NCBI GenBank assembly: GCA_013375375.1
Contig: JABXJX010000002.1
Location: 1,584 to 65,583 of the forward strand
Length of the DNA stretch: 64,000 nt
Direction of reading: 5' to 3'
DNA from: Desulfobacterales bacterium
Lineage (GTDB): Bacteria > Desulfobacterota > Desulfobacteria > Desulfobacterales > C00003060
Positions 8,034 through 27,757 of this stretch are shown piece after piece. Position numbers and translations under genes: made by a program. Each line of letters opens with the position of its first letter. The first letter of the stretch is position 1. The notes beneath the pieces are model-generated. The model was given only the letters and a program-made list of their open reading frames with translations, was not told where the DNA came from and searched no databases.

Positions 8034-9125
8034 TCAATTTTGCCTAAGGATTGAAGCTACAATTGTATCATGAAGAAGTGGCCTGAACGTCTTGATTCGT
8101 TCATTATCCCGGCTGGGATGAATACGGTTGGTCAGGAGGATCACGATCAGATTTTTTTGGAGGTCCATCCAGAAGGATGTCCCTGTAAAACCGAGGTGGC
8201 CGACACTTTGATCAGAAAAATGCCGTCCGCTGCTCGAATCGGGCTGTGAAGGGGTATCAAACCCGAGCGCCCAGCTCCCAGGACCGGACTGTTGCCTGAG
8301 AAATGTTTGCACCACATTTTCGTGTAAGAGGCCGCTGTTTTGTTTTCCCTCGTGGGTATTTAGGAGTTCTTTGAGGAGACCATAAACATCCTGGGCTGTA
8401 CCAAACAGCCCGGCGTGTCCTGCCACCCCTCCCAACACATAAGCGTTGTCGTCGTGGACCTCGCCATCCAGAATTTTCCCGCGCCAAGGACAGTCTTCAG
8501 TCGCGGCATACAACTGATCGTTTCGTACTTGTGACAGCTCAACACTCAAGGGGATGAAAAAAAGATGCTTGAGTCCGAGTGGCCCATACACGGAATCTTC
8601 CACAAACCGGTCAAGAGACTCTTGTGCAATGACTTCAACCAGCCATTCCAGGATCATGAAACCGATATCGCTGTACAGGCAAGCTTGCCCTGGTTTATGG
8701 ATAAGTTCTTCGGCAAGAAGCAGCTTCCTGAGTGAAGCTTTTCGCTCAGATGGCGGGATCTCCATGAGCTTCTTGTAATAGGGCCGGTAGTCCGGAAGAC
8801 CGGATGTGTGTGAAAGAAGCCGGCGGATAGTGATTTCTGCTTTGTCCGTACCTGAGCAGTCCTGGATTACGCTGCCCAGCGTCTGATCAGGATCAAGCTT
8901 TCCGTCCTGGACAAGGAGCATAATAGCAACAGTGGTGGACAGGGGCTTGGTCAATGATGCCAGGTCAAAGACTGTTCCGGTTGTCATGGGCCACTCAGGC
9001 GCGAGTCTCGCAAGGCCGAATGCCTCAAAGAATACCACGCGACCTTCCTTTGCTACAAGGAGCACACCACCCGGAAAGACACCGTCTATGACGCCGCTTT
9101 TCATCAAATCCCGTACGGACTTCAT
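8034..9125 (-). CDS. serine hydrolase, beta-lactamase/PBP4-like family
   Basis: SxxK motif in DLASLTKPLSTTV, plus HTSGLPDY and a HLGFTGTS-type C-terminal motif. Overlaps ldcA by 4 nt. Confidence 0.75.
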   Translation of the reverse strand: MKSVRDLMKSGVIDGVFPGGVLLVAKEGRVVFFEAFGLARLAPEWPMTTGTVFDLASLTKPLSTTVAIMLLVQDGKLDPDQTLGSVIQDCSGTDKAEITIRRLLSHTSGLPDYRPYYKKLMEIPPSERKASLRKLLLAEELIHKPGQACLYSDIGFMILEWLVEVIAQESLDRFVEDSVYGPLGLKHLFFIPLSVELSQVRNDQLYAATEDCPWRGKILDGEVHDDNAYVLGGVAGHAGLFGTAQDVYGLLKELLNTHEGKQNSGLLHENVVQTFLRQQSGPGSWALGFDTPSQPDSSSGRHFSDQSVGHLGFTGTSFWMDLQKNLIVILLTNRIHPSRDNERIKTFRPLLHDTIVASILRQN

Positions 9126-10149: not shown

Positions 10150-10226
<77 letters not shown>

Positions 10227-16352: not shown

Positions 16353-16623
16353 GGACCTGCTTTCCTTGACTTTTCGGATTATTCTTTTCCCACGACCCTT
16401 TTGGCTCGCTCCGAACAACTTTCGGGTGATAGCTGTGCCATTAAAGAGGTTGGGCAGTCTACTTATTGTCAGCATATGAAAATGACACAAAGAGGTCAAT
16501 CATAAAGAATCACCATCAGGTGCCTGGGGCCGGACAAAGTCCCGAGGGTATATCGCCACACTCAGGTCGTGAGAGGGCTGCCCCTTCATTCTGACTTCAA
16601 CAGCCCGTTACCCTTCTGAATTC

Positions 16624-16652
16624 TTGACAAAAATCTGCATTCTTTGTAGTCT
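16624..16652 (+). promoter_or_regulatory. candidate sigma70 promoter for the sigma-factor gene
   Basis: TTGACA (16624-16629), a 17-nt spacer, then TAGTCT (16647-16652). Confidence 0.35.
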
Positions 16653-16753
16653 TCCTTTGAGATTTGGCGCCAATAGTTTTCAAGTCCAACCCTTGGGTAA
16701 ACTAACCTAAAAAGCTGATGGCTTTTTGACGGTACAAGGAGAATCAAGAGGTT

Positions 16754-17350
16754 TTGGATAAGAACCGGATGGCATTGGGTCTTCCTGATGAAAGAAAGCT
16801 CTTGGATAGATGCCTGGCACAAGACAAAGAGGCATGGGATACATTTGTTGAGACATACAATCGCCTCATCTCACATGCCATTGCTCAAACCTTAAAGAAG
16901 TATTCAGTCTCTCCGGAAACCCATGTGGTTGATGATCTCTTCCATACCGTATTTCTTTCACTTGTTGAAAATAACTGTAAAAAGCTCAGGCAATTCCAAT
17001 GGAAATGCAAACTTTCCAGTTGGCTCCACATAATCGCTGTCCGGGTGACAATTGATTATTTAAGGAAGCAATCTGAACATCTTTCATTGAACGGGGAAAC
17101 AGATGAGAAGATACCTCTAAAAGAGAGGATAGCCAACGGAAATCCTCTACCTGATGAACTCCTTGAATCGAAAGAGAAAGAAAGGATTTTCGAGCAGATC
17201 AAAAGCACCCTTACTTCCAGGGAGCGGCTTTTTGTAGAGCTTTACTACTGCCGTGAGCTTTCACCAAACGAGATCGCAAGGATATTGAACACAACTACAA
17301 ACAACGTCTATCAGTTAAAAAACTTTTCCAGATCTATTAGGTGGTCATGA
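16754..17350 (+). CDS. RNA polymerase sigma-70 family (ECF-type) sigma factor, atypical C-terminus
   Basis: Region 2 (DLFHTVFLSLVEN...SWLHIIAVRVTIDYLRK) and region 4 (RERLFVELYYCRELSPNEIARILNTTTNNVYQLKN) are recognisable. The start codon is uncertain (TTG 16754 or ATG 16769). Confidence 0.75.
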   Translation: MDKNRMALGLPDERKLLDRCLAQDKEAWDTFVETYNRLISHAIAQTLKKYSVSPETHVVDDLFHTVFLSLVENNCKKLRQFQWKCKLSSWLHIIAVRVTIDYLRKQSEHLSLNGETDEKIPLKERIANGNPLPDELLESKEKERIFEQIKSTLTSRERLFVELYYCRELSPNEIARILNTTTNNVYQLKNFSRSIRWS

Positions 17351-17403
17351 AATTTTTATCGCTGTAATATCGAGGAGTTAAGACGCCCAAGAAACTTTTT
17401 TGC

Positions 17404-17459
17404 TTGACAATGAGATTACTTTTAGTTATTTTTAGATACTAAATATAATCAGATGCAAG
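17404..17459 (+). promoter_or_regulatory. candidate sigma70 promoter(s) of the islet operon
   Basis: TTGACA(17404)-17 nt-TATTTT, and TTTAGA(17431)-17 nt-TATAAT(17454-17459). This is an AT-rich region 30-80 nt upstream of 17488. Confidence 0.4.
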
Positions 17460-17487
17460 GAAAGAATCTTGCCTGGGCGAGGTAACT

Positions 17488-18048
17488 ATGAAAAATGCGA
17501 ATACGACAGACATTGAAAAAGTTCTTCAAAGGAAAGAGGACCCAAGGAGAACGACCTTCAATCTCACCTCCAATGCCCATGAATTCATTAGTTACCTCGC
17601 CAAGTCACTGAGAATCAGAAAGAAGGAAGTTTTTGATCGTTTTGTTCAGATGATAGATGTCTTGGACCTGGATAAGGATGCAATTGCGAATTTGATGGGG
17701 AAGGGGACTGTTGAGGATACTGTGCGGAAAACATATGTCATTGATACCAAAGTCTTGCGAAGAATTGAACAAATTTCAAAAAAGGCGGGATGCAGGAGAG
17801 ATATCCTCATAGAAATGTTGGCGATTGGTTTGAGGGAGTGGATTGACAGTGAAAAAAGGCAGCGCACTCCAGTAATTGAAGAAACCATAAAGCGTATAAA
17901 TGACCTGTGGAGTGAAGTTTCCGGTTTAGAGGAGGACTTACGCAAGATCTTCGATGGGGACAACAAAATTTTCGAATGCTTCTCGACTATTGATTACAGC
18001 TTCGACAAGGGGCTACAACTCTTAAACGAGGAGCTTAAGACAAATTAA
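17488..18048 (+). CDS. hypothetical protein with two ribbon-helix-helix-like segments
   Basis: RTTFNLTSNAHEFISYLAKSL.. and RKTYVIDTKVLRRIEQISKKAG..DILIEMLAIGL both fit the strand-helix-helix pattern of CopG/Arc folds. This is by-eye inference only. Confidence 0.45.
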   Translation: MKNANTTDIEKVLQRKEDPRRTTFNLTSNAHEFISYLAKSLRIRKKEVFDRFVQMIDVLDLDKDAIANLMGKGTVEDTVRKTYVIDTKVLRRIEQISKKAGCRRDILIEMLAIGLREWIDSEKRQRTPVIEETIKRINDLWSEVSGLEEDLRKIFDGDNKIFECFSTIDYSFDKGLQLLNEELKTN

Positions 18049-18067
18049 CCCAAGGGCTATCAAAAAA

Positions 18068-18763
18068 ATGTCAACTATAGATGATGAAAAACTATTGGTT
18101 CGGCAACTCAGGAATGAAGAGGGTAAGACCCTTCAGGAGATAGCCAGCAAATTTGATAAGAGCATCTATTGGGTAAAATCGAGATTGGACAAAAGATATG
18201 AACCAAAGCGAAAAAGAAAAACCAGCTCAGAGGAAAACCTGTCAGCTCGTGATACGGAGATCCATGATCCAAAACTATCCAACGAAATTGATCAAGTAAC
18301 AAGACTAAGACAAAAAGGGCTAACATTTGAACAGATTGCGGCAAAACTCAACAGAAGCATATACTGGGTGCATACTCGACTAAGGTCCAAGTACACACCT
18401 CGCATAAGTCTAAAGGAAAAAGAATTCCAAGAACTGAGGGTAATCCCCTGGTTATTGGAACAAGGTCATACAATTACCGGACAATATGTCAGATCCGGGG
18501 AAGGACTTTTTATACAGGAGGCTGATATCCAGAGTTCTTGTGAGGGATTGCTTTATATCACGGAGGTTAAGGTTTCTATCAGTCATCATCAGTTTCAAAC
18601 CGCTATCGGCCAGCTCTTGCTACACAAATTTGCACTTAAGGACATTTCAACGTTACGACTGCAAATTGCGTTACCCGTTGAGGTTCGTGCCGAAAACATT
18701 TCCAATGAGCTTTTGCATTTTATGCATCATGAAATAGGCATAGACGTAGTTTTTGTTCCATAG
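18068..18763 (+). CDS. tandem HTH (sigma70 region-4-like) protein with C-terminal PD-(D/E)xK nuclease-like domain
   Basis: An internal repeat is present: GKTLQEIASKFDKSIYWVKSRLDKRYEPK and GLTFEQIAAKLNRSIYWVHTRLRSKYTP. The C-terminal WLLEQGHTI...QEADI...LYITEVKV fits the E..G / D / ExK restriction-endonuclease fold. Confidence 0.55.
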   Translation: MSTIDDEKLLVRQLRNEEGKTLQEIASKFDKSIYWVKSRLDKRYEPKRKRKTSSEENLSARDTEIHDPKLSNEIDQVTRLRQKGLTFEQIAAKLNRSIYWVHTRLRSKYTPRISLKEKEFQELRVIPWLLEQGHTITGQYVRSGEGLFIQEADIQSSCEGLLYITEVKVSISHHQFQTAIGQLLLHKFALKDISTLRLQIALPVEVRAENISNELLHFMHHEIGIDVVFVP

Positions 18764-18788
18764 ATAATCCGTAAGGGGGAGGTGTTAA

Positions 18789-19097
18789 ATGTCAATGTTT
18801 AATCTAAAACTTTTATTCCTGCCAGGCATTTACGGAAAAGATGCCCTACCTTGTGGTCCAACAGCATATGTTGCTATTCAAAGATACCTTCATCCAAATT
18901 TGACAGATAGTTCTATGAAGAATGAGCAAGTTATTTCAGCCGACTGCCTCACGTTTGATGAATTTAAGCATGAGATAAATCGACTTACTAATGAATTGGA
19001 AACACTAAAGAAACGGGCCGAACGACTTTTTGCGGAAATAGCACAAGAGAAACAAAGGGCTTACGGAGTCATTAGGAGCTTATTGGAATGCAATTAA
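18789..19097 (+). CDS. hypothetical protein (C-terminal coiled-coil-like)
   Basis: 102-aa ORF with a strong RBS (GGGGGAGG), lying in an operon with its neighbours. No family was recognised. Confidence 0.45.
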   Translation: MSMFNLKLLFLPGIYGKDALPCGPTAYVAIQRYLHPNLTDSSMKNEQVISADCLTFDEFKHEINRLTNELETLKKRAERLFAEIAQEKQRAYGVIRSLLECN

Positions 19098-19163
19098 GAA
19101 AATCACCGATGTCTCGATTGAGCGTGTCCGGCAACAGCGATTTAAGTATTGGAGGTAAAGGAT

Positions 19164-19376
19164 ATGGAATCAAGGTGCCTTAAATGCGGTCGTGCCCTTT
19201 TCAGGCAGGCCTTGCTTGATGATAACGGACATAAGGCAATGGTTGACGATACTCCAATCAATTCCGATGGGGTTGACAAATTTTACAGTTGTCCACATTG
19301 CGGAGCCAGAAATGTAACTGTAGAAGGCAGAAGCCCACACGTGCTTTGGCAACGGAGAATCTCTCATGTTAAGTAA
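19164..19376 (+). CDS. small zinc-ribbon protein
   Basis: CLKCGRA...CPHCGARN are two CxxC pairs. ATG 19164 is preceded by GGAGG. Confidence 0.5.
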   Translation: MESRCLKCGRALFRQALLDDNGHKAMVDDTPINSDGVDKFYSCPHCGARNVTVEGRSPHVLWQRRISHVK

Positions 19377-19419
19377 ACGGCGATAGGGTTCAGTGAATCA
19401 TAAATTGACTATTTTTTGA

Positions 19420-20394
19420 GTGCCTCAACGAGGGGAGTATCAAATCAGAACATTTAATAACGTGAAAAAAACATTTTCAGATTGCCCCTGCCAGCGGGCG
19501 ATTGACACTGAACACAAAGACCTGTTGAGGGAGTTTCGCAGAATTCGGAAACAGTGCCCAGCGTTGAGAGAAGTATTGGTGCCTGGACCCATCTTGTCGG
19601 AATTCGAGGAGGCTTGTAACGCAGCCCCGGACAATGCCCGGCATCGATCTATTCTCTTGCTGGCTCTCGAACGTGGATACCTGAACCGAATCACATCCCC
19701 AATACACAGCTACGTTCTCAAAAATGACAAACCGAAAAACGAGTTAACAAAGCAATACAGGCAAGACCTCCAAGAACGCTGGCTCCGTAATGATAGTGAG
19801 ATAGAGCGTCACCGAAGATCAAGGATTTTTCAAGGAAGACTATGTGAGCTTCAGTGCGCTGAATGGATCGAGAAACAAGGCTGGAAGATTACCGATTTGG
19901 AGGCATTGGGTGGTTCGCAAGATATCGAAGCTCGCTCTCCAGACGGCACCGAGTACTCAATTGAAGTAAAATACATAGGACAGGAAGATACTGATTTTCT
20001 ATCCCTTGTTAATAGCCTTAAAGGTAGAAGTGAAGCCCGCTCAGTATCTCCATACGTAGCATGCAATTTCATGCTCTTCAGAGTGTACGAGGCTACCAAG
20101 CAATTTGAGGAATCCACTCAGGCTCGTATCGCAATGTTAGTAATATCGGACATGACTTGGGAACGTTTTGATTTGCAACTGAAAGACAACTGGATTGATT
20201 GGAAGTCACCTCGTTTTTACAACAGAGATCAGATTTGGCAGAATTTCCTTCAAGAGCAGAAGAAAAGGTATCCTGACATCGAAAATAATTTGCAGACGGC
20301 TTTAAATAGTGTGACGGAGTTGTGGATAATAAGGTCTAAAAACGGCTTTGAATACTCGAAGGAGCATGTTGTGCCTCTCAGTGGATGCACATAA
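19420..20394 (+). CDS. hypothetical protein with Mrr-cat-like PD-(D/E)xK endonuclease domain
   Basis: GRLCELQCAEWIEKQGWKI...GGSQDIEARSPDGTEYSIEVKYIG fits the FE..L...G / D.GiDi / (E/Q)xK pattern of Mrr-type nucleases. There is no ATG near the 5' end, so the start (GTG 19420) is uncertain. Confidence 0.5.
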   Translation: MPQRGEYQIRTFNNVKKTFSDCPCQRAIDTEHKDLLREFRRIRKQCPALREVLVPGPILSEFEEACNAAPDNARHRSILLLALERGYLNRITSPIHSYVLKNDKPKNELTKQYRQDLQERWLRNDSEIERHRRSRIFQGRLCELQCAEWIEKQGWKITDLEALGGSQDIEARSPDGTEYSIEVKYIGQEDTDFLSLVNSLKGRSEARSVSPYVACNFMLFRVYEATKQFEESTQARIAMLVISDMTWERFDLQLKDNWIDWKSPRFYNRDQIWQNFLQEQKKRYPDIENNLQTALNSVTELWIIRSKNGFEYSKEHVVPLSGCT

Positions 20395-20575
20395 CTGGCA
20401 GTTGCGGCTGCCGGGGTTACGCTCCTTCGTCTATATCACCCTTCGGGGCACATCCTATGTAGCTGGTCGTTATAAAATGAAAGGGGGTCGGGCATGACCG
20501 GGAAACTTGAAGAACCAGGCAAAAATAATGAATTATTCTTGAAAAAGCTGTTTTTGTCTGGTAAAAGATTATATT

Positions 20576-20794
20576 ATGCTAAACAGAATCTCAGTAAATC
20601 CGGAAATTTGTGAAGGCAAGCCCACCATTAGAAATCTCCGAATAACAGTGGACTTTATCCTGAAGCTTATTGGAGACGGCTACTCAGCGGATGAGATCAT
20701 TAAGAATTACCCTGAATTAGAGAAAGAGGATATCTACCAAGCTGCCAAATACGGTGCTTGGCTGGCCAGCGAAAAAACTATAGCCGTCGCATGA
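20576..20794 (+). CDS. DUF433-family small protein (antitoxin-like partner of DUF5615)
   Basis: PEICEGKPTIRNLRITVDFILKLIGDGYSADEIIKNYPELEKEDIYQA matches the typical DUF433 signature. Confidence 0.75.
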   Translation: MLNRISVNPEICEGKPTIRNLRITVDFILKLIGDGYSADEIIKNYPELEKEDIYQAAKYGAWLASEKTIAVA

Positions 20795-21153
20795 AAATTC
20801 TGGCTGATATGCATGTGTCGCCGCACACCGTAACCTTCCTCCAGGCGCTCGGTCATGATGCTATTCGAATCAGCGAGATCTTGCCCTCAAATTCTTCTGA
20901 TACAATGATTGTGGAGGCGGCCAGAAAAGAGCACCGCGCTGTCCTTACACAAGATCTCGATTTTTCAGAAATCATCTCACTGTCTGGAGAAAGTGCCCCC
21001 TCCCTGATATCACTTCGCCTGTCATCTTCAAGAATAGAGTTTGTAAACAGCAGATTACAAAAAGTGTTGCCCCAGATAAGTGGCTATGTTGAAAAAGGGG
21101 CCATCATAGTAATTGAAGATGACCGTATTCGGGTTCGTAACCTTCCTGTCTAA
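20791..21153 (+). CDS. DUF5615 / Mut7-C-like PIN-fold protein (toxin-like partner of DUF433)
   Basis: MKILADMHVSPHTVTFLQALGHDA... is a typical family N-terminus. ATG 20791 overlaps the DUF433 stop (ATGA), so it is preferred over the longer ORF starting at 20758. Confidence 0.7.
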   Translation: MKILADMHVSPHTVTFLQALGHDAIRISEILPSNSSDTMIVEAARKEHRAVLTQDLDFSEIISLSGESAPSLISLRLSSSRIEFVNSRLQKVLPQISGYVEKGAIIVIEDDRIRVRNLPV

Positions 21154-21320
21154 AATAGTCAATTTCATGTGACTTCCTATAACGTGCCCGGCGTGATGTG
21201 AGGTGCGAAAATCTTGATGCCGGATCGCCCTGGGGATTTGTCAGAGAAAGAATACGAAAAGGGGCATGAAAAGGGCTCTCATTATTCGTCCAGAGGCGTA
21301 GTTCGATTCTCCTTTTTTCC

Positions 21321-21349
21321 TTGACAACTCAGCCATCGTCTTTTACGGT
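21321..21349 (+). promoter_or_regulatory. candidate sigma70 promoter of the riboswitch-dapA transcript
   Basis: A perfect TTGACA (21321-21326), a 17-nt spacer, then TACGGT. The predicted start falls just before riboswitch P1. Confidence 0.4.
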
Positions 21350-21358
21350 AGCTATCAA

Positions 21359-21530
21359 CGAGAGTTGAGGTGCGGTTCTCATGAGTAACCGTAAGACAGG
21401 GGACAGGCCCCGTATCTTGCGGTGAAAGGGTGGACCGCCGAAGTCTGCTTTTGGCCTGTTGCAAAAGAAGACTGGGCCTGAGGATAAGATCCCCAGGACT
21501 GTCACAACTTTTTTGTGGAGCGCTCTCTCG
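21359..21530 (+). promoter_or_regulatory. lysine riboswitch (L box) aptamer
   Basis: P1 is CGAGAG...CTCTCG. The conserved L-box blocks are GAGGTGCG, GAGTA, GTGAAAGGG, CGCCGAAG, CTGGGCC and GGACTGTCAC, in the same order as in the B. subtilis lysC leader. It sits upstream of dapA. Confidence 0.85.
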
Positions 21531-21538
21531 GCTAAGGT

Positions 21539-21570
21539 ACAGCTGGAGTGTTCTCCAGCTGTTTTTTTTT
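21539..21570 (+). terminator. intrinsic terminator (riboswitch expression platform)
   Basis: ACAGCTGGAG-TGTT-CTCCAGCTGT stem-loop followed by T9, located 22 nt before the dapA start. Confidence 0.8.
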
Positions 21571-21592
21571 GCAAACAAAAGGAGGTGCTATT

Positions 21593-22630
21593 ATGTTTAA
21601 CGGATGTTACACGGCGCTGGTGACGCCATTCAAGGACGACTATGAAGTTGATTATGAAGGCCTGGGTAAACTTGCCGAGTTTCAGATTGCAGGCGGTGTA
21701 AGCGGAATCCTGGCCGTCGGCACCACGGGTGAGAGCCCCACGTTGAACTGGGGAGAACACAATGAAGTAATCCGGGTAGTCGCGGAGAAGTGCAAGGAAA
21801 AGTGCCAGTGCATCGCAGGTACGGGCAGCAATAATACCCATGAAACCATGGAAAGCACCGAGCACGCGGTTCATGTAGGAGCTGATGCAGCATTGCTGGT
21901 AGATCCTTATTACAATGGCCCCAGTTCCCTTGAGATCCGAAGAGAATATATCGCCCCGGTTGCCGACAAGTTTCCCGAGATGCAGATCATCCCGTATGTT
22001 ATACCGGGGCGAACCGGGGCCCAGCTTTTGCCCGAAGATCTCGCTATACTCAGTAACCAATTTGCCAATGTGGGCACGGTCAAGGAAGCTACGGGAAACA
22101 TCGAAAACATGAAGCGCACGCGTGAGTGCTGCGGGGATGACTTCACGATCCTGTCCGGCGATGACGACAAGACCTTCACCATGATGACCGACCCCGCCAT
22201 CAAGGCAAGCGGCGTCATTTCAGTTGCTTCCAATATAGCGCCCAAGGCGGTTCATGAGATGACCGCGCTCATCGGCCAAGGCGACCATGCTGAGGCGGAA
22301 AAACTCATGCTTGCACTAAAGCCGCTTTTTGGGATTGTAACAGTAAAGACCCAGGAGGAGACACCTTACGGTAGTGTGGGTTGCCGGGCAAGAAATCCGC
22401 TGGGTACAAAGACCCTTATGGCGATTCTCGGCATGCCGGTTGGGCCGTGTCGCCGGCCACTTGGCAAGATGACCAAAAAAGGGGTCGAGGTCGTGTTGGA
22501 GGCGGGCCGTGCGGTCTGGAAGAATAATCCGGAGATCCTGAAACCTGTGGCCGATTTCTTTGGCGTAGATATTGAAGCCAGGCTCTACGAGGAATCGAGC
22601 AGGGCAGGGTTGACATACGACGAATACTAG
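21593..22630 (+). CDS. dapA: 4-hydroxy-tetrahydrodipicolinate synthase family protein (long form, 345 aa)
   Basis: TALVTPF..., GTTGESPTL and VKEATG (Schiff-base Lys context) are present. ATG 21593 follows AAAGGAGG. The lysine riboswitch upstream supports a lysine-pathway role. Confidence 0.8.
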   Translation: MFNGCYTALVTPFKDDYEVDYEGLGKLAEFQIAGGVSGILAVGTTGESPTLNWGEHNEVIRVVAEKCKEKCQCIAGTGSNNTHETMESTEHAVHVGADAALLVDPYYNGPSSLEIRREYIAPVADKFPEMQIIPYVIPGRTGAQLLPEDLAILSNQFANVGTVKEATGNIENMKRTRECCGDDFTILSGDDDKTFTMMTDPAIKASGVISVASNIAPKAVHEMTALIGQGDHAEAEKLMLALKPLFGIVTVKTQEETPYGSVGCRARNPLGTKTLMAILGMPVGPCRRPLGKMTKKGVEVVLEAGRAVWKNNPEILKPVADFFGVDIEARLYEESSRAGLTYDEY

Positions 22631-26131: not shown

Positions 26132-27034
26132 TTAAAGTGACAGGATAAGCAAAAAGATTCCGAAAGATAGGATCAATAAAGACCCGCAGGTTGCCAAACC
26201 TTTTTGCACGAGCAGGCGGGCCTTATTTTTTTGGCTTAAAGCTTTTAATATTCCCTCCTTAGCAACAATGCTCAGCACACCTGCCAGTGAAATCGTAAAT
26301 GCCATCCCCAGGGCCATGAAAAACGATGAAACAAGGCCAATCCCCAGCATATTTAAGGAGAGGGAAAATAACATGATAATCACGACCCCCGGACAGGGGA
26401 CCATTCCAACCGCAAGGGCGACTGGAAGAATGCTCTTATGATCTAAAGGATGAGCGGATAAATCCTTTTCTTCCCCCTGTGGATTGTCTTTCCGCAAATC
26501 AAGAATGCTTTTAATCAACAAGACCGCACCGGTTAAGGTAATAAGGCTGTAACTGATCAGTTTTATTTTTCTTGAAAGGTTTTCAAAGGATGCTAAACAG
26601 GATTGTTTGAGAATGAAATAGATGGTCAGAACAATGACCACGGCCGAAAGGGCGTGAAAAAAGGAGATTAGATTGCCCAAAAGAATGCCTTTTTTGATAT
26701 GTTCCCTTCGGGATAGAAAGTAAGAAAAGGTCACTGCTTTGCCGTGCCCCGGCCCGGCTGCGTGTAAGATACCATAAAGGAAGGAGATCAGGATCAAAGC
26801 GATGAGAGGCTTCTTGGAGTTTGAGGTTTTTATTTCCCGGGATAATCTTGCAAACTTTTTATTAAGTTGATGCTGCCAAAGGGAGATTTTGCCGTAGAAC
26901 TTCGACAAGCAGCTCGGGGATTTTATGGCCTTCTTTGATGGTTCTTTCGAAACGAAAGGACTATCCGTGGCCAGACTGGTTACCGGAAACAACAATAGAG
27001 ATATCGCAAAAACGAGAAGGAATATCTTACCCAT
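26132..27034 (-). CDS. NicO/RcnA-like (COG2215) metal-transporter permease
   Basis: HAAGPGHGKAV motif and multiple TM helices. Translationally coupled to the DUF1007 gene. Confidence 0.65.
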   Translation of the reverse strand: MGKIFLLVFAISLLLFPVTSLATDSPFVSKEPSKKAIKSPSCLSKFYGKISLWQHQLNKKFARLSREIKTSNSKKPLIALILISFLYGILHAAGPGHGKAVTFSYFLSRREHIKKGILLGNLISFFHALSAVVIVLTIYFILKQSCLASFENLSRKIKLISYSLITLTGAVLLIKSILDLRKDNPQGEEKDLSAHPLDHKSILPVALAVGMVPCPGVVIIMLFSLSLNMLGIGLVSSFFMALGMAFTISLAGVLSIVAKEGILKALSQKNKARLLVQKGLATCGSLLILSFGIFLLILSL

Positions 27035-27629
27035 TTTTTCCTCGGAACTTCAAAATGATTTCTTCAGGAAATAGCATGCCAAAGTAATACGGTTCTTCGG
27101 TATTTTTTGCTATTTGATGATGAAAATCAATCGAAGATATATTTTCAAATTGAACAGAGTTGTTCTGGGCTAAAGAAATGTTGCAGTAGTTCTCTTTATC
27201 ATAAATGGATATTCTGACCTCCTTAAAGGTGGAAATGGCCGTCACATGGCATGGGACAAAAAAATTATAGATAACTTTGTTCTTGCAGATACTGGCCGAG
27301 AAGCCTTGGACGTATCTCACCTTGAATTGTTGACCGTTTATCTTTATGTAGGTGAAATAGTCAAAATTCTTTAAGTGCTCAAAGGCCCCTTTCTTGATTT
27401 TTTCTATTTCCGGAGCTTCAAATTTTCTATTTTTGTTTTTATCGAACTCATAGATAATCATGCCACTGAACATTTCATCAAAGATCCATTTCAGGTTAAT
27501 GCCTGTCAATCCCTTTTCATTGAAAACAATCTTCAGGGAATTATCTATAAAAACATGGGGATGAGAGAATGAATCTGCGTGAAGAAAGGACACAATGACA
27601 AAAGCCAAAACGGAAAGACCGAACTTCAT
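27027..27629 (-). CDS. DUF1007-family periplasmic protein (partner of COG2215 permease)
   Basis: A signal peptide followed by SHPHVFID..., as is typical of DUF1007. The start is uncertain (ATG 27629 or TTG 27647), and no clear RBS is visible. Confidence 0.6.
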   Translation of the reverse strand: MKFGLSVLAFVIVSFLHADSFSHPHVFIDNSLKIVFNEKGLTGINLKWIFDEMFSGMIIYEFDKNKNRKFEAPEIEKIKKGAFEHLKNFDYFTYIKINGQQFKVRYVQGFSASICKNKVIYNFFVPCHVTAISTFKEVRISIYDKENYCNISLAQNNSVQFENISSIDFHHQIAKNTEEPYYFGMLFPEEIILKFRGKNG

Positions 27630-27757
27630 TTTTTTAGATAGATACAATTAGAGCACTTTAAACTATTTTTATGACTGAATCCAGCCACTTCGCTAAAAAT
27701 AATACTCGTAAGAAATGAACAAGTCAATGGAAAAACAAGGGTTATACCCGGCGAGGA

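Follow-up and report, generated by a model that had tools for sequence, protein, structure and literature searches.

A low-GC gene block with two predicted PD-(D/E)xK nucleases in a Desulfobacterales genome, probably assembled from separate accessory cassettes

Five small genes, here called g1 to g5, lie in a row between positions 17488 and 20394 of a 64,000-nucleotide stretch of a Desulfobacterales metagenome-assembled genome (assembly GCA_013375375.1, contig JABXJX010000002.1, positions 1,584 to 65,583), which is referred to throughout as the window. A first-pass annotation, made from the sequence alone, read these genes as a candidate defence or addiction module built around two different nucleases of the PD-(D/E)xK fold. 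Comparison with related loci indicates instead that the block is probably not one system but a chimeric operon, in which three accessory cassettes (g1, g2-g3 and g4-g5) were inherited independently of one another. When all block components were compared by tblastn with 66 related loci, the five genes were found together in no other inspected locus.

The five open reading frames (ORFs) are all on the forward strand, at 17488-18048 (g1, 186 amino acids), 18068-18763 (g2, 231 amino acids), 18789-19097 (g3, 102 amino acids), 19164-19376 (g4, 70 amino acids counted from ATG) and 19420-20394 (g5, 324 amino acids, or 310 with the NCBI start), separated by spacers of 19, 25, 66 and 43 nt, in agreement with the co-directional layout and 19-66 nt gaps first described. 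The promoter-like sequence that had been noticed ahead of the block corresponds to a sigma-70-like site upstream of g1, TTGACA-17-TATTTT (17404-17432, forward strand; 10 of 12 consensus matches), whose -35 hexamer and surrounding leader are conserved in two related loci, L014 and L023. An imperfect inverted repeat (17414-17450, no strand assigned; 13-nt arms, 85% complementary) overlaps this promoter, is largely kept in relatives, and is a candidate operator for g1. No terminator-like site was found on the forward strand between 16500 and 21500. The ORFs are all intact, and the ratio of nonsynonymous to synonymous substitution (dN/dS) is 0.21-0.59 over all five genes (0.38-0.59 for g1, 0.21 for g2, 0.27-0.51 for g3 and 0.30 for g5). 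Hence g1 to g5 are maintained genes under purifying selection.

Scans of all five proteins against Pfam, NCBIfam, PHROGs and PADLOC returned helix-turn-helix (HTH) matches for g2 only, the remainder being noise, and no paralogues of the block genes were found in the 64-kb window. Domain scans of the block ORFs bore out the statement that no methyltransferase, ATPase or helicase accompanies the nucleases, and no methyltransferase domain was found in any ORF from 16754 to 21153, which sets the block apart from restriction-modification systems. The earlier view that the layout corresponds to no nameable defence system likewise stood, as PADLOC-DB 2.0.0 gave no meaningful match for g1 to g5, for 38 relatives of g5 or for 32 relatives of g2.

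The g2 protein combines two sigma-70-region-4-like HTH units (amino acids 1-45 and 65-110) with a predicted PD-(D/E)xK nuclease domain (amino acids 112-231). The duplicated HTH, already proposed from the sequence, was recovered both as two Pfam matches (Sigma70_r4 at amino acids 12-41, 1.2e-6; HTH_23 at 79-109) and as two three-helix units in the AlphaFold2 (AF2) model (predicted local distance difference test score, pLDDT, 82), which also shows a disordered linker and an alpha/three beta/alpha/beta domain. The elements of this domain are helices at 112-131 and 173-189 and strands at 135-143, 150-158, 161-167 and 196-203, with a pLDDT of approximately 84-95 over most of its length. The search for homologues found 66 proteins of 209-295 amino acids; in an alignment of 32 of them (42-91% identity) conservation is high in the two HTH units, and the invariant positions include E117, F120, Q121, D153, E166, V167, K168 and the TAIGQL motif (178-183). 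Searching the PDB with Foldseek matched the excision-controlling factor XisH (2okf; 2.8e-4, probability 1.00) and AF1548 (1.4e-3, probability 1.00), as well as UPF0102, the R2 retrotransposon endonuclease, Bax1, LmuA, McrC and Can2; all of the matches listed are PD-(D/E)xK enzymes, and a viral library likewise returned PD-(D/E)xK proteins. By sequence or profile alone, the PDB yielded no more than weak hints for the block proteins (AF1548 0.095, XisH 0.13, UPF0102 1.8, CopG 0.66). The fold matches and the invariant catalytic residues make the nuclease call well supported, with both the core fold and the catalytic residues predicted in the C-terminal domain, and the D...EVK core first read from the sequence corresponds to the invariant D153, E166, V167 and K168. 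In eight loci (L050-L054 and L056-L058), shorter relatives of approximately 165 amino acids have a single HTH before the same nuclease domain, meaning the duplication is not universal in the family.

Relatives of g2 are found in the company of defence genes. Genes flanking them are typically co-directional and tightly packed, and PADLOC matches to 141 families were found among 99 neighbouring ORFs. A gene for a PDC-S32/AbiJ_NTD4 protein of approximately 300 amino acids starts 0-16 nt downstream of the g2 relative in L022 (8001-9641), L038 (982-2645) and L042 (4971-6596), which makes this a recurrent pair, and SpbK/TIR_2 genes adjoin g2 relatives in two loci. Further PADLOC families nearby include dCTP deaminase and mad2 (twice each), a type II methyltransferase, a type I restriction enzyme, PDC-S02, PDC-M35A/B and PD-T4-6, while a Pfam scan of the neighbouring ORFs added RE_TdeIII, Type ISP and YhcG. 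One locus, L063, has IS91, T5orf172, a methyltransferase, Phd/ParE and a DDE transposase. Hence the g2 family is associated with defence islands, yet it has no PADLOC model; a literature search on PDC-S32, and on XisH in the context of defence, found nothing relevant.

The second nuclease candidate, g5, consists of an N-terminal helical domain with C22, C24, C46 and H75, a PD-(D/E)xK core, and a C-terminal beta extension. A word-indexed search found 116 homologues. A full profile search extended the family to 468 clusters at 50% identity, from at least six phyla, with 266 E-values below 1e-30 and almost exclusively full-length members (295-320 amino acids). Across 38 sequences (34-71% identity), C46, H75, T92, Y113, R130, G139, E143, D168, K184 and G187 are invariant, and C22, C24 and E182 nearly so (E182 in at least 90%); the protein thereby has the catalytic residues of a PD-(D/E)xK enzyme in E143, D168 and K184, together with E182. 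The nine best PDB matches to its AF2 model (pLDDT 91.6, predicted template modelling score 0.89) are SfsA, XisH (two entries), Can2, BsmI, LmuA, EndoMS and NotI (two chains), all of them PD-(D/E)xK enzymes, with a best E-value of 9.7e-3. A PD-(D/E)xK core is accepted for g5 on this combination of motif and predicted fold, and the CxC..C..H set of its N-terminal domain looks like a metal site. The first-pass description of the core as Mrr-cat-like was not confirmed at the level of the family: Mrr_cat (PF04471) had no match in the window protein at E-values up to 1, nor in any of the 38 relatives at up to 0.1, and membership of that family was rejected. Sub-threshold Pfam matches in these relatives were to NOV_C (4 of 38, best 0.004), UPF0102 (3 of 38), NERD and DUF4143, all of which we take to be PD-(D/E)xK families. 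Aligning g2 with g5 by hhalign put the catalytic residues in register at a probability of only 5%, and a common ancestry of the two beyond the superfamily is not claimed. Two relatives, P0098 and P0113, have the Pfam accession PF28505.1 on their database record. Another, P0196 (639 amino acids), is a family member behind an unrelated 337-residue N-terminal region with no relative in the PDB, and may be either a true fusion or an error of gene calling.

The genomic settings of g5 differ from those of g2. The 13 g5 loci in genomes, from Nitrospira, Nitrospinales, several Acidobacteriota, Firmicutes, Ignavibacteriota and Deltaproteobacteria, had no recurrent neighbour family when 130 ORFs from around g5 were compared all-against-all by BLASTP. 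Housekeeping genes make up most of these surroundings, such as pyruvate:ferredoxin oxidoreductase, aminotransferases, GDP-mannose dehydratase, DNA polymerase III alpha and TatD, and PADLOC matched only nine weak families among 106 ORFs, at the same threshold as in the g2 scan. The g5 family is scattered singly in genomes, with no consistent defence context.

The g3 protein ends in a coiled coil and is otherwise devoid of known domains, Pfam returning only coiled-coil noise. Its gene stands beside g2 in L018, L019 and L023, with a weak match in L033 (30% identity, 2.6e-7); it was not detected at other g2 loci, and most of the approximately 22 non-redundant ones lack it, its company with g2 being confined to close relatives. 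In g4, the zinc ribbon that had been named from the sequence is represented by four cysteines in a CxxC...CxxC arrangement, but the profile matches are weak (zinc-ribbon Pfam families near 1e-3, Lar-like 0.013-0.014), leaving it a predicted zinc-ribbon protein that is not confirmed at significance. The syntenic copy in L014 is 77% identical over a 75-residue ORF, or 80% over 70 aligned codons, and neither g4 nor any zinc ribbon was found upstream of the distant g5 relatives.

At the head of the block, g1 contains two units resembling ribbon-helix-helix (RHH) domains, RTTFNLT...KEVFD and KTYVID...RDIL, plus a helical C-terminal region, with the motifs RTTFN, KE.F, TYVI and RD.L invariant in 10 of 10 aligned sequences. 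The single-chain double RHH proposed in the first-pass annotation was not confirmed at significance: there was no RHH match in Pfam or NCBIfam, the family profile reached CopG (2cpg) at E = 0.66 only, in unit 2, and the in-register alignment of one unit with the other has an E-value of only 0.04. A tandem RHH is a plausible reading of this pattern. Only nine homologues were found, of which six are distant (approximately 30% identity) and retain both units. At every locus inspected, these distant relatives are followed by an overlapping gene for an 86-88-residue DUF4258-like protein (profile E-values 2.6e-5 and 5e-3), beyond which the gene content varies. DUF4258 is a toxin family of the RelE/ParE superfamily, with the gene order antitoxin then toxin (PMC11980606). 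Hence the g1 family holds the antitoxin position at the head of operons, widening the antitoxin repertoire linked to DUF4258 toxins. In the window and in close relatives there is no DUF4258-like gene downstream of g1, the next gene being g2 or g4. The distant operons, in metagenomes, are L024 6001-7927, L028 1824-3069 and L029 3304-5260, with a g1-like protein of approximately 195 amino acids; the fourth gene of that in L024 encodes a 176-residue protein with a PD...EVK motif (VRR_NUC at 0.048).

The relationships between these genes were assessed in approximately 15 inspected loci for g5 and 22 for g2, most homologue contigs being short. Firstly, the contig with the closest g5 relative, L014 (4.7 kb, 79-89% nucleotide identity), has the order g1 (87% identity), g4 (77%) and g5 (71%), with the same spacing and promoter as the window. 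Two blastn blocks, pairing window 17323-18073 with L014 161-904 and window 19141-20484 with L014 906-2271, nearly adjoin there, meaning g2-g3 is absent from precisely the 48-nt g1-g4 spacer of L014; this empty site reads GAAAAGTCACTTTGAGTG. Relative to L014, the g2-g3 cassette is a presence/absence segment of approximately 1.07 kb in that spacer (18074-19140, forward strand). Secondly, L018 and L023 carry g1-g2-g3, the g1 of L018 lacking its first 72 codons. Thirdly, L019 has g2-g3 at 87% nucleotide identity (window 18066-19083) between unrelated genes, and g1, g4 and g5 were not found in this locus; the borders of the cassette are gene-precise, 2-3 nt ahead of where g2 starts and within the final codons of g3. 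Fourthly, no relatives of g1 to g4 were found at the 15 more distant g5 loci (the 13 genome loci, L016 and L017). Fifthly, synonymous divergence (dS) jumps between adjacent genes when compared with a single relative, being 0.055 for g1 and 0.18 for g2 against L023, and 0.17 for g1, 0.27 for g4 and 0.54 for g5 against L014, which is a signature of recombination.

The surroundings of the block are similarly variable. Its GC content, computed along the window, is 0.421 against 0.474 for the whole, a value as low in only 4.5% of 3-kb windows, confirming the difference from the flanks that had been judged by eye. The low-GC stretch is broader than the block, at approximately 16600-21400, and so also takes in a sigma factor ORF upstream and a DUF433/DUF5615 gene pair downstream. 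The former encodes a protein of the extracytoplasmic function type (16754-17350, forward strand; 198 amino acids; TIGR02937 at 6.1e-25) and lies outside the conserved unit: homology to L014 and L023 starts only at approximately 17323-17331, inside its last codons, placing the 3' end of the sigma gene on a recombination breakpoint. In L014, L018 and L023 a repeat protein takes its place upstream of g1; that of L014 and L018 is secreted and has 'DRNNQYDGS' repeats. On the other side, the pair of DUF433 and PIN-like DUF5615 genes that had been reported to follow the block (20576-21153, forward strand; overlapping by 37 nt) was verified by profile matches above the Pfam gathering thresholds (DUF433 1e-22, 80.1 bits; DUF5615 5.5e-21, 74.9 bits; PIN_10 1.4e-6, 28.7 bits), and forms a separate cassette resembling a toxin-antitoxin (TA) pair. 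L014 has CsgG, HEPN_AbiV and Unstab_antitox/ParE at this position instead; the genes for the CsgG-like lipoprotein and HEPN_AbiV, which come after g5 there (L014 2283-3788), are both absent from the window. Beyond the pair lies a decayed TA remnant (21208-21368), of which 21208-21308 (forward strand) comprises the 3' end of Unstab_antitox and the first ParE codons, 90% identical to L014 4244-4344, from which the toxin body has been deleted, L014 4345-4668 having no counterpart in the window. The setting of the block is accessory and TA-rich.

The right border of this variable islet is marked by a lysine riboswitch (21357-21532, forward strand; RF00168, 99.9 bits) ahead of a dapA-like ORF (21548-22630). 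Window 21313-21368, which reaches the riboswitch start, is matched by the right end of L014; hence the islet occupies the same chromosomal site in both, with different cargo. In the window this cargo is the sigma factor ORF, g1 to g5, DUF433/DUF5615 and the Unstab_antitox/ParE remnant, whereas in L014 it is the repeat protein, g1, g4, g5, the CsgG-like protein and HEPN_AbiV, together with an Unstab_antitox/ParE pair that is intact. The islet is behaving as a recombination hotspot for small accessory cassettes.

From the observed presence of genes, mosaic structure, folds and motifs of both nucleases and distributions of their families, a model of the block can be proposed. It would have been assembled by recombination within the variable low-GC islet, which has pyruvate kinase on one side and the lysine-riboswitch/dapA locus on the other, and the g1 promoter probably drives transcription of the whole. 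The first cassette would be g1, an antitoxin-type and probably tandem-RHH DNA binder with its own conserved promoter, which most likely regulates itself through the inverted repeat overlapping that promoter. The second would be g2-g3, a tight two-gene unit dropped into the g1-g4 spacer, in which the two HTH units of g2 may bind DNA for cutting by a catalytically intact, XisH-like PD-(D/E)xK domain; as the g2 family is found in defence and TA islands, g2 most likely acts in conflict with phage or mobile elements. The third would be g4-g5, a putative zinc ribbon with a self-sufficient metal-dependent DNA nuclease, whose CxC..C..H N-terminal domain probably binds zinc and selects the substrate.

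Several points weigh against this interpretation of the block. Firstly, few loci could be inspected, and partners that have diverged beyond detection by tblastn or BLASTP would be missed. Secondly, the synteny of g1, g4 and g5 is held in L014, the one relative whose contig spans it, meaning these three genes could still act together. Thirdly, the association of g2 with defence consists of raw neighbour tallies with no formal background comparison. Fourthly, the fold matches of g5 all have E-values above 1e-3, and the RHH fold of g1 is a plausible reading only. Finally, co-transcription, autoregulation, zinc binding, nuclease activity and the defence role are all inferred.

The second of these points leads to the first of the rival explanations, in which g1, g4 and g5 are a genuine three-gene addiction or abortive-infection (Abi) module, with g1 as RHH regulator or antitoxin, g4 as zinc-ribbon adaptor or inhibitor, and g5 as nuclease toxin, into which an independent g2-g3 module was inserted. 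The adjacency, spacing and promoter shared with L014 are what such a module would leave, the g1 family occupies the antitoxin position of DUF4258 operons, one of its distant operons (L024) ends in a small PD..EVK protein, and the locus is ringed by TA cassettes. However, L014 is a close relative, at 79-89% nucleotide identity, and its synteny therefore carries little weight, and at the 15 distant g5 loci no neighbour resembling g1 or g4 and no upstream zinc ribbon was found, meaning g5 does not need them. The three-fold difference in dS between g1 and g5 against L014 also speaks against this module, and we consider it unlikely.

That g2-g3 is instead a selfish mobile nuclease cassette, resembling a free-standing homing endonuclease that inserted itself by cutting the empty site, is more doubtful still. 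Such an element would account for the precise presence/absence polymorphism within an intergenic spacer, for a cassette almost devoid of flanking non-coding DNA that recurs in unrelated contexts, and for the joining of two sequence-reading HTH units to an intact nuclease with the R2 retrotransposon endonuclease and XisH among its structural neighbours. Yet the flanks of g2-g3 in its three contexts (the window, L019 and L033) share nothing, and no target-like sequence is common to them, which is why homing is ranked low. Nor are there paralogous copies in the window; viral, phage and plasmid collections yielded no relatives over the full length; and most g2 relatives have no g3 and belong to fixed, operon-like gene arrays that include defence genes.

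The low GC content, the TA remnant at 21208-21308, and the transposase genes near the relatives L016, L017 and L063 would fit a block that no longer functions and is left over from a prophage, plasmid or transposon in decay, but this is very improbable. Searches of 2.9 million viral contigs had no match for g1, g3, g4 or g5, and one for g2, to its nuclease domain only; g2 and g5 had no match in phage and plasmid collections; no integrase or tRNA was found at the borders; and all five ORFs are intact, with dN/dS below 0.6. On these searches, in which the block had no phage, plasmid or prophage match beyond the partial one of g2, a prophage or plasmid origin was rejected. As for all five genes being one integrated, undescribed defence system, the single module first suggested, this hardly merits credence: despite the tight co-directional spacing, the one strong promoter-like site ahead of the genes, the lack of a terminator inside the block, the two nucleases accompanied by DNA-binding proteins, and the lack of PADLOC recognition, it failed the co-occurrence check that the first-pass annotation had itself set, each cassette being seen without the others and the five never together.

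Within the preferred reading of three independently inherited cassettes, a further and more tentative proposal concerns the g2 family, which may be an undescribed modular component of defence islands, a protein of approximately 230 amino acids with one or two sigma-70-region-4-like HTH units fused to an XisH-like PD-(D/E)xK nuclease, and with interchangeable partners in g3, AbiJ-NTD4/PDC-S32 and TIR/SpbK. If so, g2 could be a sequence-directed nuclease, or a DNA-sensing switch for partner effectors, and the window would have caught one such cassette as a recent insertion. The family is a lead worth following and a reasonable candidate for experimental testing.

The nearest functional analogues of g2 and g5 would be solitary or type IV restriction enzymes, and those of g1 the RHH antitoxins of DUF4258 modules. 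Type IV and solitary enzymes such as Mrr similarly join a DNA-binding domain to a PD-(D/E)xK nuclease with no methyltransferase alongside, and are likewise spread patchily across phyla, the g2 family being found near restriction-modification and Abi genes. However, the HTH of g2 is of the duplicated sigma-70 region 4 type, rather than the winged helix of Mrr-N, and there is no match to Mrr_cat; nor is the g5 family associated with defence islands. The g1 family shares with type II TA systems of the DUF4258 type the antitoxin-then-toxin order, its distant relatives lying upstream of and overlapping a DUF4258-like gene, and in the window the inverted repeat overlapping the promoter is a further likeness. 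Unlike those systems, the window g1 has no downstream DUF4258 gene, and unlike short antitoxins with a single RHH it has approximately 190 amino acids and two RHH-like units, the RHH fold being putative.

In structure, the closest comparison is to XisH, the fdxN-element excision-controlling factor (2okf, 2inb), on which the C-terminal domain of g2 superposes with a TM-score of 0.67 on the target and a root-mean-square deviation of 3.0 Å over 118 columns, and which stands with SfsA first in the match list of the g5 core. XisH, AF1548 (1y88) and UPF0102/YraN (3fov) share with the g2 and g5 models a compact core with the pattern of an alpha-helical E, a D, and ExK. The Pfam profiles of XisH, UPF0102 and Mrr_cat have no above-threshold match in g2 or g5, and both depart from minimal XisH-type proteins, g2 by adding two N-terminal HTH units, and g5 by adding a 125-residue Cys/His helical domain and a C-terminal extension. 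The setting of XisH is also missing, with no XisI-like partner and no XisF recombinase in the block. In comparison with the PDC-S32/AbiJ-NTD4 and SpbK-type TIR genes that adjoin g2 relatives, the partner in the window is the unrelated small coiled-coil protein g3.

Hence a tidy operon of nucleases and small DNA binders can be an accident of cassette shuffling rather than a system, which matters for the mining of 'defence-like' clusters from single genomes. In the process, two uncharacterised nuclease families were delimited: the HTH-HTH-nuclease family of g2, and the widespread, solitary family of g5, with its Cys/His domain and PD-(D/E)xK core.

Other features of the window are incidental to the block. 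A second and deeper GC trough (0.35) lies at approximately 27000-27750. ARAGORN reported a 'tRNA-???' with a two-base anticodon (entry: 8387-8474 on the reverse strand, 10150-10226 on the forward strand), which Rfam does not confirm, and the window also contains a normal tRNA-Pro(GGG).

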